Below, in pieces: positions 4,468-50,693 of a stretch of 51,662 bases of DNA. The notes under the pieces are model-generated. The model was not told where the DNA came from and did no database searches. It worked only from the letters and a program-made list of their open reading frames with translations. The position numbers and the translations under genes are program-made. Source of the DNA: a virus (Duplodnaviria; Heunggongvirae; Uroviricota; Caudoviricetes); the IMG/VR virus record IMGVR_UViG_2526164599_000006; one strand, 5' to 3'. Each line of letters opens with the position of its first letter. Position 1 is the first letter of the stretch.

Positions 4468-4892
4468 TGTTTTTGGTTTTAACTGTTCCGCGTGCGCTCA
4501 GCCGCATTCACCACATCACAAAATTCACTTTAAAAAGGGCGGCAGAGCAGTCACGGAGTAAAACTGATACCGCCAAACGTCACCAGAAAATTGATAACAG
4601 AGGGCGTTGCAGCGGGGTTGTCACTTAAGCGTATGGTCAACCTGACAACCCGGTGTCCTCAACGGGGGAAGGAATAACCCCGCCATACTTACCGCCGCGC
4701 CATTTCGCGGATTGCCACAACCGGAAGCGCACGGTCGACGAAAATTTAACGACAGGCTATCTATGAACCAGCTACCTCGCCGTGCGCTTTCGCGTTATGG
4801 TCTGACTTTTCAGGGAAATATCCTTTCAGTAAACTTGTCAACGCCAAGATTATTGGCCGTTTTTCGCCATTTTTAATGTCCGCTATTGGTCA

Positions 4893-6859
<1,967 letters not shown>

Positions 6860-7057
6860 GAGTGTTCCCTTTGTGGTGTAGGAACCTTAAGGAAACAACA
6901 TGTTGGGTGGAGCGGACAATCCAAATGGTGAATTACTGTCTTATATCATTGGCGCTGACAAACTGTCAGTGCCGGATTCTTATCCGTGTCCGGCGCACGA
7001 CCACACGCTGTCACGAGAGGTCTCCATTCTCAACCAGTAACCTCAATGGAGGATAAA

Positions 7058-8034: not shown

Positions 8035-8313
8035 TTAGGGAAACTGGCGTCTTGCGTGGATCACGTTTACTACTTCAACGCTTGATGTTGTTACGCGGTA
8101 TAGAATTATATAGTTAGGGTGGGCTACAATCTCACGCAAGCCAGGTACTCTGTCGCTTGGTGGGTATAAATACGGATGTTCGGATAACGGCAGCACACAA
8201 CCCCTTAATCGCTGCCATAAGCGTTCAGCCGCATCTATGTCGAAACGAGCAATATAACTAGTTATATCATCTAGGTCGGTATCTGCGCTTTCAAGCCATA
8301 ACACGGGTAACAT
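8035..8313 (-). CDS. parE2: ParE-family toxin (ParE2-like)
   Basis: 92-aa product from internal Met of the 124-aa ORF (MLPVLWLESADTDLDD...HPNYIILYRV...); start overlaps stop of upstream antitoxin with 1-nt spacing. Confidence 0.8.
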   Translation of the reverse strand: MLPVLWLESADTDLDDITSYIARFDIDAAERLWQRLRGCVLPLSEHPYLYPPSDRVPGLREIVAHPNYIILYRVTTSSVEVVNVIHARRQFP

Positions 8314-8314
8314 T

Positions 8315-8506
8315 TTACTGCTTGCTCCGTTCCTTACGCATCTTAGCAAAGCGTTCTGCCATTCTGCGCTCAACTTCGTCATGGGGAATTGCTGGGCGCG
8401 GATCTGCAAGGCTCGTTGCTACTTTCGCACGCAGCCATTCGTTGTAACTGTTTTCTTGTTCAATGGTTTCAAATTCAGAAACCATTGGTGAAAGGGCTCT
8501 ATTCAT
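8315..8506 (-). CDS. paaA2: PaaA2-like antitoxin
   Basis: 63-aa product (MNRALSPMVSEFETIEQENSYNEWLRAK...) immediately upstream of parE-like gene; matches remembered PaaA2 of the E. coli O157:H7 paaR2-paaA2-parE2 system. Confidence 0.7.
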   Translation of the reverse strand: MNRALSPMVSEFETIEQENSYNEWLRAKVATSLADPRPAIPHDEVERRMAERFAKMRKERSKQ

Positions 8507-8526
8507 GTTTCCTCCGGTTTTATAAC

Positions 8527-8805
8527 TCAGGCGCGGCGGCATTTTTGCGCCGCAATCCATCTCGCTATGAGATCTTCCATTGATTCTTTTTTCTGCTTTA
8601 ACTCGCTGATTATCTGGCGTTGCTCATCCTCAGGGAAGGCTGAAAAAATCTGCAATAATTCCAGTTGATTAGACGTTAACCCTGCATGTGGTGGAGAAAC
8701 CCCCGGTTGTTCTGCGTATTCCGCATCCAGATACCCTTCCGGCATCCCGTATGTTTGCTCTATTCTTCTGGCAGCCTTTTCTCCAAACGAGGCTCTCCCA
8801 CTCAT
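8527..8805 (-). CDS. repressor-like regulator (PaaR2/CI-like), N-terminal HTH region apparently out of frame
   Basis: 92-aa ORF from ATG 8805; the same frame continues upstream without a start codon and encodes HTH-like residues (EIRRLRLKEWFKDKTLPPKEKSYLSQL); an ATG at 8897 is in another frame separated by an A7 tract (8887..8893). Confidence 0.5.
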   Translation of the reverse strand: MSGRASFGEKAARRIEQTYGMPEGYLDAEYAEQPGVSPPHAGLTSNQLELLQIFSAFPEDEQRQIISELKQKKESMEDLIARWIAAQKCRRA

Positions 8806-8936
8806 TAGTTGAGATAGGTAGCTCTTCTCTTTGGGTGGCAGAGTTTTATCTTTAAACCACTCCTTGAGACGTAAACGGCGAATTTCTTTTTTTGCATGTG
8901 GTAATTATCTTTAGTAATCACTAAACAAGCAAATAC

Positions 8937-8994: not shown

Positions 8995-9297
8995 ATGACA
9001 TTAAAAGAGTTTATTAAATCATTAAGGGTTGGTGATGCTAAGAAATTCGCGGCCAGACTTGGTGTATCGCCATCTTACTTATCGCAAATGGCGTCTGGAC
9101 GAACAGCTATATCTCCAACCCGCGCCCTTATGATCGAATCTGCGACGGAAGGCCAAGTAAGTAGGGCGGAGCTACGACCCCATGATTGGGAGCTTATTTG
9201 GCCTGAGTATGCGAGCGGCATTCGTTTGGGGCAAACACATGTAGTTCATGCTGAAGGTGATTGTAGTACATGCTTATCTGATGGAGTTGATTCATGA
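8995..9297 (+). CDS. Cro/YdaS-like HTH regulator
   Basis: 100-aa ORF with XRE-type HTH (FAARLGVSPSYLSQMASGRTAIS); first gene of rightward operon, divergent from repressor-like gene. Confidence 0.7.
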   Translation: MTLKEFIKSLRVGDAKKFAARLGVSPSYLSQMASGRTAISPTRALMIESATEGQVSRAELRPHDWELIWPEYASGIRLGQTHVVHAEGDCSTCLSDGVDS

Positions 9298-9719
9298 AAA
9301 TCAAGCATGAACACATCCGCATGGCGATGAATGTCTGGGCGCATCCGGACGGCGAAAAAGTACCGGCTGCGAAAATTACCAAAGCGTATTTCGAGCTGGG
9401 AATGACGTTCCCGGAACTGTATGACGACAGCCATCCGGAAGCCCTGGCCCGTAATACCCAGAAAATTTTCCGTTGGCTGGATAAAGACACCCCTGATGCT
9501 GTTGAAAAAATGCAGGCTCTGTTACCGGCGATCGAAAAGGCGATGCCGCCTTTGCTGGTGGCCCGTATGCGCAGCCACAGTTCTGAATATTACCGTGAGA
9601 TCGTCGAACGGAGGGATCGGCTGGTGAAGGATGTCGATGATTTTGTTGCGTCAGCGGTTGTTTTGTATGACCAGATGAATCGCGGCGGCCCGGCAGGGAA
9701 TGCTGTGGTGATGCACTAA
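9294..9719 (+). CDS. YdaT-like protein (CII-position regulator)
   Basis: 141-aa ORF beginning MKIKHEHI, as remembered for Rac YdaT; overlaps stop of upstream gene. Confidence 0.6.
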   Translation: MKIKHEHIRMAMNVWAHPDGEKVPAAKITKAYFELGMTFPELYDDSHPEALARNTQKIFRWLDKDTPDAVEKMQALLPAIEKAMPPLLVARMRSHSSEYYREIVERRDRLVKDVDDFVASAVVLYDQMNRGGPAGNAVVMH

Positions 9720-9726
9720 AAGCACG

Positions 9727-10704
9727 GTGTTCGGGGGTTTTATGAGCAGCAAGCTTCATGGTCTTGTCTGGGAAGGGTGCGCCTTCACCGGCATGATCTT
9801 ATCCAGGGTGGCGGTTATGGCCCGTCTTGCAGACTACAGCAATGACGAGGGTGTGTCATGGCCTGCCATTGAAACTATCCGGCGTCAGATCGGTGCAAGA
9901 AGTGAATCCACAGTGAAATCGGCTATTGCAGAACTGGCGAAAGAGGGCTGGCTGACGAAGGAAGAGCGTAAGGTCGGTGGGCGTAATGTAAGCAATATCT
10001 ATCGGCTTAATGTGGAAAAACTCGAAGCAGCTGCGGCGGCGGCGCGTGAGTCATATAAACCGAAAAGAAAAATTAGCCCGGCAAAAAATGACCCGTTAAC
10101 AGTTGACCCGTCAAATATTGACCCCTCAACGGTTGACCCGTCAAATTTTGATGGATCAACTGTTGATAAAAAACTGCCGATTAGGGGGGCGATGATTGAC
10201 CCCGATCCGTCAGTATTAAAACCTGATCCGTCAGATAAAAGATCTTCTTGTCCGGACGCTTCGCAACCGGACCCGCAGACGGCTGAACAGGATTTTTTAA
10301 CCCGACACCCTGACGCGGTTGTGTTCAGTGCGAAAAAACGCCAGTGGGGAAGTCAGGAAGATTTGGTGTGCGCACAGTGGATCTGGGGACGAATCGTGAG
10401 TCTTTACGAGCAGGCGGCCAGCTATGATGGCGAGATCACTAGACCGAAAGAACCCAACTGGACAGCATGGGCCAATGACGTTCGCACAATGCGGATGCTG
10501 GATGGCAGAACTCACAGACAAATTTGTGAAATGTTTGGGCGTCTCCAGCGGGATTCGTTCTGGGTAAAAAACATCATGAGTCCGGCAAAACTCCGGGAAA
10601 AATGGGATGAACTGGTTATCCGCCTGGGGCGTTCGCCTGCGCAGCGTTGCGTGAATCACATTTCTGAACCGGACACTGAAATTCCGCCGGGCTTCAGGGG
10701 GTAA
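9727..10704 (+). CDS. putative replication initiation protein (O-like position), iterons embedded in coding sequence
   Basis: 325-aa ORF (track start GTG 9727; ATG at 9742 is an alternative); N-terminal winged-helix-like region, peptide repeats DPLTV/DPSNI/DPSTV/DPSNF encoded by 15-bp iterons. Confidence 0.65.
   Translation: MFGGFMSSKLHGLVWEGCAFTGMILSRVAVMARLADYSNDEGVSWPAIETIRRQIGARSESTVKSAIAELAKEGWLTKEERKVGGRNVSNIYRLNVEKLEAAAAAARESYKPKRKISPAKNDPLTVDPSNIDPSTVDPSNFDGSTVDKKLPIRGAMIDPDPSVLKPDPSDKRSSCPDASQPDPQTAEQDFLTRHPDAVVFSAKKRQWGSQEDLVCAQWIWGRIVSLYEQAASYDGEITRPKEPNWTAWANDVRTMRMLDGRTHRQICEMFGRLQRDSFWVKNIMSPAKLREKWDELVIRLGRSPAQRCVNHISEPDTEIPPGFRG
10089..10178. repeat. candidate replication origin iterons (six 15-bp-spaced TGACCCGTCAAnnnn-like repeats)
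   Basis: Direct repeats starting at 10089, 10104, 10119, 10134, 10149, 10164; followed by paired GATCCGTCAG motifs at 10204 and 10225. Confidence 0.5.
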
Positions 10705-10744
10705 GTGTTAATTTCTGGTCATGAGGTAATTTTCAGGAGGGCTT

Positions 10745-11167
10745 GTGGCAAAAGTTTTTACACAAGAAGAGCGGGAAAAAATTAAAGGGCTGATCGTGGA
10801 ATTCGTACGCCTTAACGGACGAGGCACGATTCGGCAGTTATCGGATGAAATTGGTGTCAGTCATGCGTCTGTCGGTCGTTTATGCATGGAGCTGGCCGCC
10901 AGTGGTGATGTTTACAATTCCGGTTACGGAGTATTCCCGTCTGAGCAGGCGCGCAAGGACTGGCAAAACGCCCGCAAAAAACTCTCAAGGGCAAAGCTGA
11001 AGAAACCATCTGTGGTTGATCCGGACCTTATCTGGCTATTACCAGACGGCGAAATACGCCGCTACGACAGGCGTCAGAACATAATCTGTCGCGAGTGCCG
11101 GAAGAGCGAAGTTATGCAGCGCATATTGTCGTTTTATCAGGGTAATTTTCAGGAGGTAGCGCAGTGA
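10745..11167 (+). CDS. hypothetical protein with HTH-like segment
   Basis: 140-aa ORF, GTG start preceded by GGAGGG; RQLSDEIGVSHASVGRL resembles an HTH. Confidence 0.45.
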   Translation: MAKVFTQEEREKIKGLIVEFVRLNGRGTIRQLSDEIGVSHASVGRLCMELAASGDVYNSGYGVFPSEQARKDWQNARKKLSRAKLKKPSVVDPDLIWLLPDGEIRRYDRRQNIICRECRKSEVMQRILSFYQGNFQEVAQ

Positions 11168-11658
11168 GTGCACCGGCAACCATTCTTGATATGTGCTGTG
11201 GCAGCCGCATGTTCTGGTTCGATAAGAATGACGACCGGGCGATATTTAGCGATATCAGAAAGGAAGAGCACACATTATGTGATGGACGAAGACTGATAAT
11301 TAGCCCTGACCTGATAGCAGATTTTCGTGCATTACCATTTGCAGACGCATCGTTTCCGGTGGTTGTATTCGACCCTCCGCATCTTGAGCGTGTTGGTGAT
11401 AACGCCTGGATGGGAAAGAAATATGGACGGCTGAATAAAGATACCTGGCGTGATGATTTGCGGCAGGGATTTAAAGAAGCCTTTCGTGTGTTGCGGCCAT
11501 ACAGCGTTCTGATTTTTAAATGGAATGAAACGCAAATACCTGTTCGCCAGATATTGGCACTGACCGACAGAAAGCCTGTTATCGGTCAACGAACAGGAAA
11601 GGGTGACAAGACCCACTGGATTATTTTTATGAAGGAGGCGACCAGTGAGCAAGATTGA
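11164..11658 (+). CDS. small phage Dam-like DNA N6-adenine methyltransferase (putative)
   Basis: 164-aa ORF with glycine-rich motif (DMCCGSRMFWFD) and DPPH variant of the DPPY catalytic motif (VVVFDPPHLERV). Confidence 0.5.
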   Translation: MSAPATILDMCCGSRMFWFDKNDDRAIFSDIRKEEHTLCDGRRLIISPDLIADFRALPFADASFPVVVFDPPHLERVGDNAWMGKKYGRLNKDTWRDDLRQGFKEAFRVLRPYSVLIFKWNETQIPVRQILALTDRKPVIGQRTGKGDKTHWIIFMKEATSEQD

Positions 11659-11827
11659 CTATCAAGAACTGCGCGAGGCGGCGGAACAGGCAACGCAAGA
11701 TGAATGGGTAGCATATATTTTGCCGGGTCATAACGCATTTATCCTGCGCGCACGTCTGAGGGTAGGCATTGCGGATACTTTATTGACTGGCCTGGCGTCT
11801 GTCAGGGGCGGGAGAGCATCAACATGA
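11645..11827 (+). CDS. hypothetical small protein
   Basis: 60-aa ORF; N-terminus MSKIDYQELREAAEQA is paralogous to N-termini of ORFs at 12327 and 13752. Confidence 0.35.
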   Translation: MSKIDYQELREAAEQATQDEWVAYILPGHNAFILRARLRVGIADTLLTGLASVRGGRAST

Positions 11828-38954: not shown

Positions 38955-39280
38955 AGACCTTCCACTGGAAAGTGAAACCCGGTATGGATGTGGCTTCAGC
39001 CCCTTCCGTCAGGAAAGTGCGCTTTGGTGATGGCTATTCCCAGCGAGCGCCTGCCGGGCTGAATGCCGACCTGAAAACGTACAGCGTGACGCTTTCTGTT
39101 CCCCGTTGGGAGGCCACGGCGCTTGAGTCGTTTCTGGCTGAGCACGGGGGCTGGAAATCCTTTCTGTGGACGCCGCCTTATGAGTGGCGGCAGATAAAGG
39201 TGACCTGCGCAAAATGGTCGTCGCGGGTCAGTATGCTGCGTGTTGAGTTCAGCGCAGAGTTTGAACAGGTGGTGAACTGA
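38951..39280 (+). CDS. M: minor tail protein M
   Basis: 109-aa ORF similar to lambda gpM. Confidence 0.85.
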   Translation: MKTFHWKVKPGMDVASAPSVRKVRFGDGYSQRAPAGLNADLKTYSVTLSVPRWEATALESFLAEHGGWKSFLWTPPYEWRQIKVTCAKWSSRVSMLRVEFSAEFEQVVN

Positions 39281-39978
39281 TGCAGGATATCCGGCAGGAA
39301 ACACTGAATGAATGCACCCGTGCGGAGCAGTCGGCCAGCGTGGTGCTCTGGGAAATCGATCTGACAGAGGTCGGTGGAGAACGTTATTTTTTCTGTAATG
39401 AGCAGAACGAAAAAGGTGAGCCGGTCACCTGGCAGGGGCGACAGTATCAGCCGTATCCCATTCAGGGGAGTGGTTTTGAACTGAATGGCAAAGGCACCAG
39501 TACGCGCCCCACGCTGACGGTTTCTAACCTGTACGGTATGGTCACCGGTATGGTGGAAGATATGCAGAGTCTGGTCGGCGGAACGGTGGTCCGGCGTAAG
39601 GTTTACGCCCGTTTTCTGGATGCGGTGAACTTCGTCAACGGAAACAGTGACGCCGATCCGGAGCAGGAGGTGATCAGCCGCTGGCGCATCGAGCAGTGCA
39701 GCGAACTGAGCGCGGTGAGTGCCTCCTTTGTACTGTCCACGCCGACGGAAACGGATGGCGCTGTTTTTCCGGGACGTATCATGCTGGCCAACACCTGCAC
39801 CTGGACCTATCGCGGTGATGAGTGCGGTTATCACGGTCCGGCAGTCGCGGATGAATATGACCAGCCGACGTCCGATATCACGAAGGATAAATGCAGCAAA
39901 TGCCTGAGCGGCTGTAAGTTTCGCAATAACGTCGGCAACTTTGGCGGCTTCCTTTCCATTAACAAACTTTCGCAGTAA
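39280..39978 (+). CDS. L: minor tail protein L
   Basis: 232-aa ORF similar to lambda gpL. Confidence 0.85.
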   Translation: MQDIRQETLNECTRAEQSASVVLWEIDLTEVGGERYFFCNEQNEKGEPVTWQGRQYQPYPIQGSGFELNGKGTSTRPTLTVSNLYGMVTGMVEDMQSLVGGTVVRRKVYARFLDAVNFVNGNSDADPEQEVISRWRIEQCSELSAVSASFVLSTPTETDGAVFPGRIMLANTCTWTYRGDECGYHGPAVADEYDQPTSDITKDKCSKCLSGCKFRNNVGNFGGFLSINKLSQ

Positions 39979-49060: not shown

Positions 49061-49644
49061 TGGCATTCAGAATGAGTGAACAAGCACGGACCATAAAAAT
49101 TTATAATCTGCTGGCCGGAACTAATGAATTTATTGGTGAAGGTGACGCATATATTCCGCCTCATACAGGTCTGCCAGCAAACAGTACCGATATTGCACCA
49201 CCAGATATTCCTGCTGGCTTTGTGGCTGTTTTCAACAGTGATGAGGCATCGTGGCATCTCGTTGAAGACCATCGGGGAAAAACGGTTTATGACGTAGCGT
49301 CAGGGGACGAGTTATTTATTTCTGAACTCGGTCCGTTACCGGAAAATGTTACCTGGTTATCGCCGGAAGGGGAGTTTCAGAAGTGGAACGGCACAGCCTG
49401 GGTGAAGGATACGGAAGCAGAAAAAATGTTCCGGATCCGGGAGGCGGAAGAAACAAAAAACAACCTGATGCAGGTAGCCAGTGAGCATATTGCGCCGCTT
49501 CAGGATGCTGCAGATCTGGAAATTGCAACGGAGGAAGAAACCTCATTGCTGGAAGCCTGGAAAAAGTATCGGGTGTTGCTGAACCGTGTTGATACATCAA
49601 CTGCACCTGATATTGAGTGGCCTACGAACCCTGTCAGGGAGTAA
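49060..49644 (+). CDS. tfa: tail fibre assembly protein Tfa
   Basis: 194-aa ORF overlapping stf stop; Tfa-like N- and C-termini. Confidence 0.85.
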
Positions 49645-50423: not shown

Positions 50424-50693
50424 ATGCTGCCGCAGCATAGCGATATTGAAATAGCCTGGTATGCTTCGATACAGCAGGAGCCGAATGGCTGGAAGACCGT
50501 CACCACACAGTTCTACATCCAGGAATTCAGTGAGTATATTGCGCCACTGCAGGATGCTGTAGATCTGGAAATCGCAACGGAGGAAGAAAGATCGTTGCTG
50601 GAGGCATGGAATAAATATCGGGTATTGTTGAATCGTGTTGATACATCAACTGCACCTGATATTGAGTGGCCTGCAAATCCTGTCAGGGAGTAA
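50424..50693 (+). pseudogene. tail fibre assembly gene fragment (duplicated tfa C-terminal region)
   Basis: 89-aa ORF whose C-terminal about 55 aa nearly match the Tfa C-terminus; N-terminal part unrelated. Confidence 0.5.

Follow-up and report, generated by a model that had tools for sequence, protein, structure and literature searches.

The window analysed here is a stretch of 51,662 nucleotides (IMG/VR virus record IMGVR_UViG_2526164599_000006) from a lambdoid prophage of Escherichia coli, and positions 10066-10253 of it are very probably the vegetative replication origin of this prophage, lying inside the linker-coding part of its chimeric, O-like replication initiator gene. The phage probably replicates via the host helicase loader and without a loader of its own. 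The tail of the initiator, which resembles the end of the host protein DnaT, may perhaps be what couples the initiator to that loader, a role that association and mimicry suggest and that we put forward tentatively. Taken as a whole, an embedded origin, host DnaB-DnaC and coupling through the tail are on balance the best explanation. An iteron array alone is ordinary, and an origin within an O-like gene is textbook lambda biology; less ordinary are the large family, the tight 15-bp iterons, the almost invariant GATC box and the lack of a phage helicase loader. The initiator gene and its parts are as follows.

9742..10704, plus strand: replication initiator gene, 'O-like', 320 amino acids (aa) (PHROG 391, Pfam HTH_36, tblastn to lambda O)
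9742..10056, plus strand: N-terminal winged-helix DNA-binding domain (N-domain), aa 1-105 (AlphaFold 2 predicted local distance difference test score (pLDDT) 74-90, topology H-H-H-H-E-E-H)
10066..10278, plus strand: disordered linker-coding segment, aa 109-179, holding the whole putative origin (pLDDT below 50)
10073..10174, no strand: iteron array, seven 12-bp sites at exactly 15-bp spacing (Tandem Repeats Finder (TRF), register, conservation)
10196..10253, no strand: conserved distal box of the putative origin, which starts TTGACCCC, continues with two iteron-like GATC boxes and then reads ATAAAAGATCTTCTT
10279..10632, plus strand: C-terminal domain, aa 180-297, lambda O homologue with a weakly DnaD/G39P-like fold
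10633..10701, plus strand: disordered C-terminal tail, aa 298-320, DnaT-like (phmmer, NCBIfam, hhalign)

The core of the array is a 12-bp dyad, TTGAC-N2-GTCAA (TTGACNNGTCAA). TRF reports a period of 15 with about 5 copies over 10068-10145/10166, together with a period-30 super-repeat of 80-84% matches, and the 15-bp copies in register start at 10074, 10089, 10104, 10119, 10134, 10149 and 10164. The core is exact at 10103 and 10133, has 1 mismatch at 10118 and 2 mismatches at 10088 and 10148, and is degenerate at 10073 and 10163. An earlier note on this DNA had described six repeats at exact 15-bp spacing; the position and the spacing hold, but instead of six equal copies there are four good and three weak ones.

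10103-10114: good iteron, TTGACCCGTCAA
10118-10129: good iteron, TTGACCCCTCAA
10133-10144: good iteron, TTGACCCGTCAA
10148-10159: good iteron, TTGATGGATCAA
10088-10099: weaker iteron
10073-10084 and 10163-10174: degenerate iterons

The core TTGACNNGTCAA with at most 1 mismatch is found nowhere outside the array in the 51.6-kb window. A looser iteron pattern occurs 13 times in the window against 14.3 expected, which is not above chance; it is the clustering that goes beyond chance, with four iteron sites within 60 bp, when none of 300 Markov-1 random sequences reaches even three. The array is in frame and encodes DPSNI/DPSTV pentapeptide repeats. Because its palindromic units alternate in the 30-bp super-period, the array also forms an imperfect inverted repeat over 10098-10164 (33-nt and 33-nt arms, 79% complementary, 1 nt between them, centre at 10131). 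TTGATACATCAA, which differs from the iteron dyad by one mismatch, occurs twice towards the right end of the window (49589-49600 and 50638-50649, 1049 bp apart); this pair is probably a chance match or a piece of an unrelated repeat.

The two iteron-like boxes of the distal element, CCGATCCGTCAG (10202-10213) and CTGATCCGTCAG (10223-10234), stand 21 bp or two helical turns apart, and the GATC box written as CTGATCCGTCAG is identical to the iteron at 9 of 12 positions. The paired motifs that had been reported after the repeats are indeed there as an exact repeat, GATCCGTCAG, which occurs exactly twice in the window (10204 and 10225, 21 bp apart). The reported A-rich stretch is also present, but it is modest, since both flanks of the putative origin have 65-80% A+T over about 20 bp and no long AT-rich block. 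GATC sites lie at 10204, 10225 and 10241, with a further one at 10154 within an iteron, and the highest GATC density seen in the window is 4 per 100 bp at about 10145-10253 (100-bp windows starting at 10145-10154). Initiators of this family (loci L092-L170) mostly have a methyltransferase gene, for Dam (PF05869) or MT-A70, as one of the two open reading frames (ORFs) that follow. GATC boxes in the most conserved part of the putative origin, together with a downstream methyltransferase, hint that the origin may be under the control of methylation or SeqA. A perfect DnaA box at 10011 was considered as a host-factor site; it falls in the conserved codons of LNVEKL and is not conserved in relatives, and the oriC 13-mer has only weak matches; neither was used as evidence.

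To what extent the repeats are conserved as DNA is evident from the relatives. The initiator has 914 homologues across Enterobacterales, and we compared the initiator genes of twelve phages or prophages and also 79 loci, spread over about 25 Enterobacterales genera, that came from scanning a single genome of each species; a scan of viral contigs with the C-terminal domain gave 80 loci in which the domain match is 99-100% identical and the full-length ORFs are near-identical, which makes them uninformative for co-variation. The HTH_36-type genes of PhiR49_1, Kp4872-1, YeP3 and Phi06_2987 all have a 15-bp array at the equal gene position, with the repeat unit TCTGAC(C/G)C(G/A)TCAAAA followed by GGGGGATCCGTCAG, and in YeP3 and Phi06_2987 the array and the GGGGATCCGTCAG box are kept despite a different C-terminal domain (Phg_2220_C). 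Where the N-domain is of another type, the repeats at the corresponding place are different too, namely five GTCACGNNNN units of 10-11 bp and GTCACG type in Evi and Tritos, 23-bp units in PhiR42_1, and in lambda its own annotated iterons. In mEp460 TRF found no 23-bp array, though its initiator is nearly identical in protein sequence to that of PhiR42_1. Altogether, five N-domain types carry five repeat types at the matching position. Upstream Cro/YdaT genes (Evi, Tritos) and downstream DUF977 (mEp460, Evi) are common to phages with three different repeat types; the flanking genes being shared in this way, the repeats track the initiator N-domain and nothing else. It is thus hardly credible that the repeats are operators of a neighbouring regulator, because they co-vary with the initiator N-domain only, while the same Cro/YdaT and DUF977 genes are found beside three repeat types.

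Equally hard to credit is that the repeats are a slippage by-product of a low-complexity DPSxx linker with no role as DNA sites. The in-frame array coding for DPSNI/DPSTV would fit such an origin of the repeats, and so would their copy number, which varies as slippage predicts: protein lengths of close relatives step by 5 aa (305/310/315/320), indicating that whole iterons are gained and lost. Slippage, however, does not account for the conservation of synonymous positions. The third codon positions of conserved amino acids are identical at a rate of 0.90 around the GATC box versus 0.53 in the N-domain (56 genes, P = 5e-6, Mann-Whitney test), and GGGGATCCGTCAGTAAA is nearly invariant in 56 distinct genes. 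Nor does it account for the subfamily closest to the window, in which the dyad site alternates between TTGACCCCTCAA and its reverse complement TTGAGGGGTCAA, encoding DPS versus EGS/EGL; since both orientations of the site occur and give different peptides, it is the DNA site that is conserved and not the peptide. All HTH_36-type genes among the 79 loci have 3-8 iterons at 15 bp, a spacer and then TTTTGACCCGTCAGAATCTGGCGGGGATCCGTCAGTAAA...GATCC(A/G)TCAGATAAAA. Among abundant E. coli homologues, four (P0099, P0103, P0104 and P0106) have lost nearly all iterons, with a linker that reads SDSDPSKSGGDPSV or SESGGDPSV, and keep the GATC box and the domains intact; these may be origin-defective prophages, or the GATC box alone may suffice. 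As far as sequences can tell, the repeat architecture, the co-variation with the N-domain and the conservation at the DNA level together appear as the classical signatures of a lambdoid ori/initiator specificity module.

The protein that would read these sites is matched from end to end by PHROG 391 ('replication initiation O-like', E = 2e-115). Its only Pfam domain is the HTH_36 winged helix (aa 25-71), and its N-domain, which Foldseek groups with MarR/ArsR-type winged helices, is the presumed reader of the iterons; it is not Phage_rep_O (PF04492), which lambda O does match. A domain search of the C-terminal part found a homologue of the lambda O C-terminal domain (aa 153-300, 35% identity, E = 1e-18, tblastn against phage genomes) and, behind it, the DnaT-like tail. 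The matching part of lambda (39118-39516) begins at the end of lambda's annotated iteron 4. In the AlphaFold model, built on 16 homologues, the C-terminal domain is predicted to be helical, and the disordered linker-coding stretch (10066-10278) coincides exactly with the repeat region. The full-length PHROG match, the lambda O homology and the conservation of synonymous sites bear out the earlier view that the iterons lie within an initiator gene as ori-lambda lies within O. The 325 aa given there for the initiator correspond to a start at the GTG at 9727; because all homologues begin with MSSKLHG and RefSeq annotates a 320-aa 'helix-turn-helix domain-containing protein', the start is most likely the ATG at 9742. 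A scan for promoters and terminators inside the initiator gene gave nothing above shuffled sequences.

It is also evident that no gene for lambda P, DnaC or DnaB is present in the window. A tblastn search with two lambda-P and two DnaC-like queries gave a single match, at 4959-5393; examined as a possible loader, it proved to be IstB of an IS21-family element, beside istA. No ORF of 120 aa or more near the module contains a Walker A motif, and a closely related, fully annotated prophage next to ompW, which has a 99.7%-identical module, contains no helicase or loader. Two genes follow the initiator.

10745..11167, plus strand: DUF977 / LygF / 'Ren-like' winged-helix protein, 140 aa (PF06163 E = 2.7e-31, PHROG 142)
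11164..11658, plus strand: small S-adenosylmethionine (SAM)-dependent DNA methyltransferase, 164 aa (PHROG 954, E = 3e-87)

The ORF at 10745-11167 has the 140 aa stated in the earlier note, which had also taken its product for something other than a recognisable P or DnaC-type loader and had suggested that helicase recruitment may differ from lambda. This agrees with our searches, in which the product is DUF977 (E = 3e-31; 108.9 bits against PF06163, gathering cut-off 22.1; PHROG name 'Ren-like exclusion protein') and the loader search of the window returned only IS21 IstB; the Pfam and PHROG searches found no homology of the downstream gene to PF06992 or PF01695. DUF977 takes the place that ren has in lambda, behind the replication genes, and not that of P. 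In Rac-type phages it comes after the DnaC-like gene. Most relatives of the window initiator lack it, and in these the next gene encodes DUF1627, a methyltransferase (Dam or MT-A70) or a YfdN-like winged-helix/PerC protein. We considered DUF977 and the YfdN-like (winged helix plus PerC) protein as one conserved accessory protein; BLASTP finds no similarity between them, and we rejected the idea. DUF977 is probably outside the replication machinery. The arrangement of O followed by LygF also occurs in the genome records of mEp460, Evi, Tritos and PhiR42_1 and so is not peculiar to this prophage. A literature search on DUF977/LygF/YdaU/YdaW and 'DnaT-like' phage proteins found nothing relevant.

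The window thus belongs to the O-only class, which has a single O homologue without a helicase or loader gene. Such loader-less modules account for 34 of 314 Enterobacteriales lambdoid phages, including phage LLS, and their replication has been called 'not yet understood' and the module type flagged as unstudied (PMC12315714, published in 2025). The replication module had been described as noncanonical, and this is correct in that no loader is present; the DUF977 gene, however, is not in the P position, and the class itself was already on record (PMC12315714).

What distinguishes this initiator is its tail. Its last 21 residues, AQRCVNHISEPDTEIPPGFRG, match the extreme C-terminus of E. coli DnaT and Klebsiella DnaT (NCBIfam and PDB sequences), with 15 of 21 residues identical to DnaT (RxVNxxSEPDxxIPPGFRG-COOH). 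In a phmmer search of PDB the tail matches the DnaT chains 2ru8, 6aep and 9zbt, the NCBIfam match covers DnaT positions 159-179, and hhalign of the C-terminal-domain profile with DnaT aligns the tail only (29 columns, probability 94.6%). This match accounts for the name 'Primosomal protein I' that automated annotation gives to phage homologues and that is otherwise wrong. Initiators that bear the DnaT-like tail are diverse, with no fewer than four unrelated types of N-domain and three of C-terminal domain. In phage records this tail is confined to the C-termini of initiators, including Rac YdaU and those of Gifsy-1/2, POCJ13, SPN1S and Klebsiella phages, and the gene after the tail-bearing initiator, where examined, is a DnaC paralogue (PhiR5_2, Gifsy-2, POCJ13) or no loader (SPN1S, Klebsiella phi3.2).

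Moreover, the type of tail is closely associated with the presence of a P gene. In the 79 genome loci, two downstream ORFs were screened per locus and their clusters were checked by Pfam. Initiators with the DnaT-like tail (IPxGFRG) are followed by P in 0 of 50 cases, by a DnaC-like gene in 2 and by no loader that could be found in 48, whereas all 11 initiators with a W-type tail (HWNSPEAWENTL, NTDWIDGIE; lambda O ends in TDWIYGVDL) are followed by P, usually with an ATGA overlap, and none by a DnaC-like gene or by no loader (P = 2e-12 for tail type against P gene, Fisher's exact test). The association persists within lambda-O-type C-terminal domains alone and within two N-domain families. Something close to a natural tail swap is seen when the window is compared with an Edwardsiella locus, L092: over aa 1-296 the two initiators are 67% identical, with N-domain, iterons and C-terminal domain in common, yet in L092 the tail is of the W type and a P gene is present.

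These results suggest how replication might start. The N-terminal winged-helix domain would bind the 12-bp iterons, 15 bp apart, and the related GATC-bearing boxes, 21 bp apart, and the bound initiators would build an O-some-like nucleoprotein complex in which the flanking A/T-rich DNA is destabilised. As P, DnaC and DnaB are all missing from the phage, it would fall to the initiator to bring in the host DnaB-DnaC complex. The likeliest coupling element would be the lambda-O-type (DnaD-like) C-terminal domain together with the disordered tail, which would mimic the last ~20 residues of host DnaT, and DUF977 would be a bystander in the ren position. The binding of the initiator to the repeats, the site of unwinding and the binding partner of the tail are the steps that we infer; the repeat architecture, DNA conservation, N-domain co-variation, lambda O homology, loader absence, tail identity and tail/P association on which they build were computed here. 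DnaT is a host restart protein that is thought to recruit DnaB/DnaC.

Two other roles of the tail have to be weighed. It is possible, though unlikely, that the origin works as described and the tail is an element for self-association or for cooperativity on single-stranded DNA (ssDNA), with DnaB-DnaC brought by the folded C-terminal domain or with the help of DnaA, as in iteron plasmids. Removal of the C-terminal 18 residues of DnaT turns the trimer into a dimer and lowers the cooperativity of ssDNA binding (PMC5314882, PMC4132743), the preprimosome structures of 2026 make the DnaT N-domain the candidate recruiter of DnaB/DnaC, and the DnaD/G39P-like fold of the C-terminal domain is one that helicase-loading adaptors use. 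However, a generic oligomerisation element is not expected to be excluded from every P-partnered initiator (0 of 50 against 11 of 11) or to occur on at least three unrelated C-terminal domains, and, as to help from DnaA, the relatives have not kept the one perfect DnaA box in the vicinity.

It is more doubtful that the tail docks the initiator on the host PriA/PriB restart machinery, so that a PriA-type primosome would form and replication would be PriA-dependent, as in pBR322 or Mu; we regard this as quite improbable. pBR322 replication and Mu lytic growth do require DnaT (PMC4129139), and the DnaT C-terminal domain contacts PriA via a hydrophobic surface, DnaT acting in PriA/PriB complexes, according to the accessible part of a report (PMC13377028), which does not state there that the extreme DnaT tail forms the PriA contact. 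Against such docking, tail-bearing initiators often stand beside a phage DnaC paralogue (Rac, Gifsy-2, POCJ13), which points to the loader and not to PriA.

As to the surroundings of the module, 9284-11700 is 99.7% identical in prophages of many sequenced strains, including O104:H4, and the initiator is presumably transcribed jointly with two early-right genes upstream of it.

8995-9297, plus strand: Cro/YdaS-like gene (Pfam YdaS_toxin/HTH_3; PHROG 35 and 163 for this gene and the next)
9294-9719, plus strand: CII-like/YdaT gene (Pfam YdaT_toxin; PHROG as above)

Ead/Ea22-like genes come after the methyltransferase gene on the plus strand. On the minus strand, a CI-like repressor gene (8527-8898) is 98% identical to the repressor of phage Evi over residues 3-123. 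The sequence at its start is ATGCAAAAAAAG, with seven A (the A-run at about 8886-8892), while seven related loci have A8 and Evi has ATGCAGAAAAAAG; with A7 the ATG is out of frame with the rest of the repressor gene, which is either a homopolymer sequencing error or an inactivated repressor. Adjoining the immunity region are a PaaA2-type antitoxin (81 aa, PF21217) and a ParE toxin (124 aa, PF05016) at 8035-8560 on the minus strand. The IS21-family element (about 4840-7000, minus strand) is inserted in the early-left region, with istB at 4893-5690 and istA at 5687-6859; IstA has the rve and Mu-transposase C-terminal domains, and IstB matches with E = 1e-87. A related prophage, in strain Ecol_316, has a Rha-family gene at the site of this element.

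Several points weigh against an active origin that is coupled to the host loader through the tail. A spacing of 15 bp makes neighbouring sites face almost opposite sides of the helix, in contrast to the iteron arrays that have been studied, and no long AT-rich unwinding element, IHF consensus or conserved DnaA box was found at the putative origin. The fold of DnaT is not shared, as the initiator has neither the DnaT DNA-binding three-helix domain (PF17948) nor the DnaT N-domain. Published work has the DnaT tail act in trimerisation and in the cooperative binding of ssDNA (PMC5314882, PMC4132743), and the latest preprimosome structures leave the recruitment of DnaB/DnaC unknown and may favour the DnaT N-domain over the tail (PMC13377028). 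The classes of tail, C-terminal domain and ORF were assigned with ad hoc regular expressions and a simple ORF caller, and the tail/P counts (0 of 50, 11 of 11) are not phylogenetically independent and cover the next two ORFs. Finally, with the IS21 insertion and the frameshifted start of the repressor, this copy of the prophage may be decaying.

Lambda is one of the known systems closest to the module. As in ori/O of lambda with its O-some, dyad iterons lie inside the initiator ORF, in an interdomain linker, the specificity of the N-domain co-varies with the iterons, the C-terminal domains are homologous, and the gene order is cro, cII-like, O. Lambda differs in its N-domain (PF04492 Phage_rep_O instead of HTH_36) and in its 18-bp iterons, annotated at a spacing of 20-24 bp, where the window has 12-bp sites at 15 bp; the window also has no long AT-rich block and no P gene, possesses GATC-bearing boxes, and ends its initiator in a DnaT-like tail where lambda O ends in ...TDWIYGVDL. 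Iteron plasmids (pSC101 RepA, R6K pi, F RepE) depend on host DnaB-DnaC, having no loader of their own, and their winged-helix initiator binds to iterons in tandem. Plasmid iterons lie outside the rep gene, are about 17-22 bp long at a spacing of about 22 bp and are usually accompanied by DnaA boxes; the window, by contrast, has no conserved DnaA box, and a Pfam search found no Rep_3 domain.

Modules of the Rac/Gifsy/POCJ13 type, with a YdaU-like initiator and the DnaC-like YdaV, have the same DnaT-like tail as the window and also downstream DUF1627/DUF977 genes, but they bring their own DnaC paralogue, which the window lacks, and have another N-domain and C-terminal domain. E. coli DnaT and the window initiator share the C-terminal peptide ...VNxVSEPDxxIPPGFRG, disordered in both, and both are adaptors upstream of DnaB-DnaC loading, a role that for the initiator is the one proposed above. 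The O-only modules have been reported as a class without an origin, a mechanism or mention of a DnaT-like tail (PMC12315714).

The new lead is that the type of tail predicts the presence or absence of a P gene and that the loader-less tail copies the end of DnaT, which gives a concrete and cheap experimental handle. With considerable reserve, we propose that the ~20-residue peptide of DnaT and of initiators from loader-less (or DnaC-paralogue-bearing) phages might be a portable short linear motif that binds the DnaC-type loader or DnaB-DnaC, that phages would have attached this motif to several unrelated origin-binding proteins instead of having a P gene, and that the W-type tail would be a P-binding motif. 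If true, this would explain O-only lambdoid replication and would identify the long-sought element of DnaT that hands the preprimosome to DnaB/DnaC. The finding bears on how replication starts in O-only temperate phages, including prophages of pathogenic E. coli, and on how DnaT couples the restart preprimosome to DnaB-DnaC.

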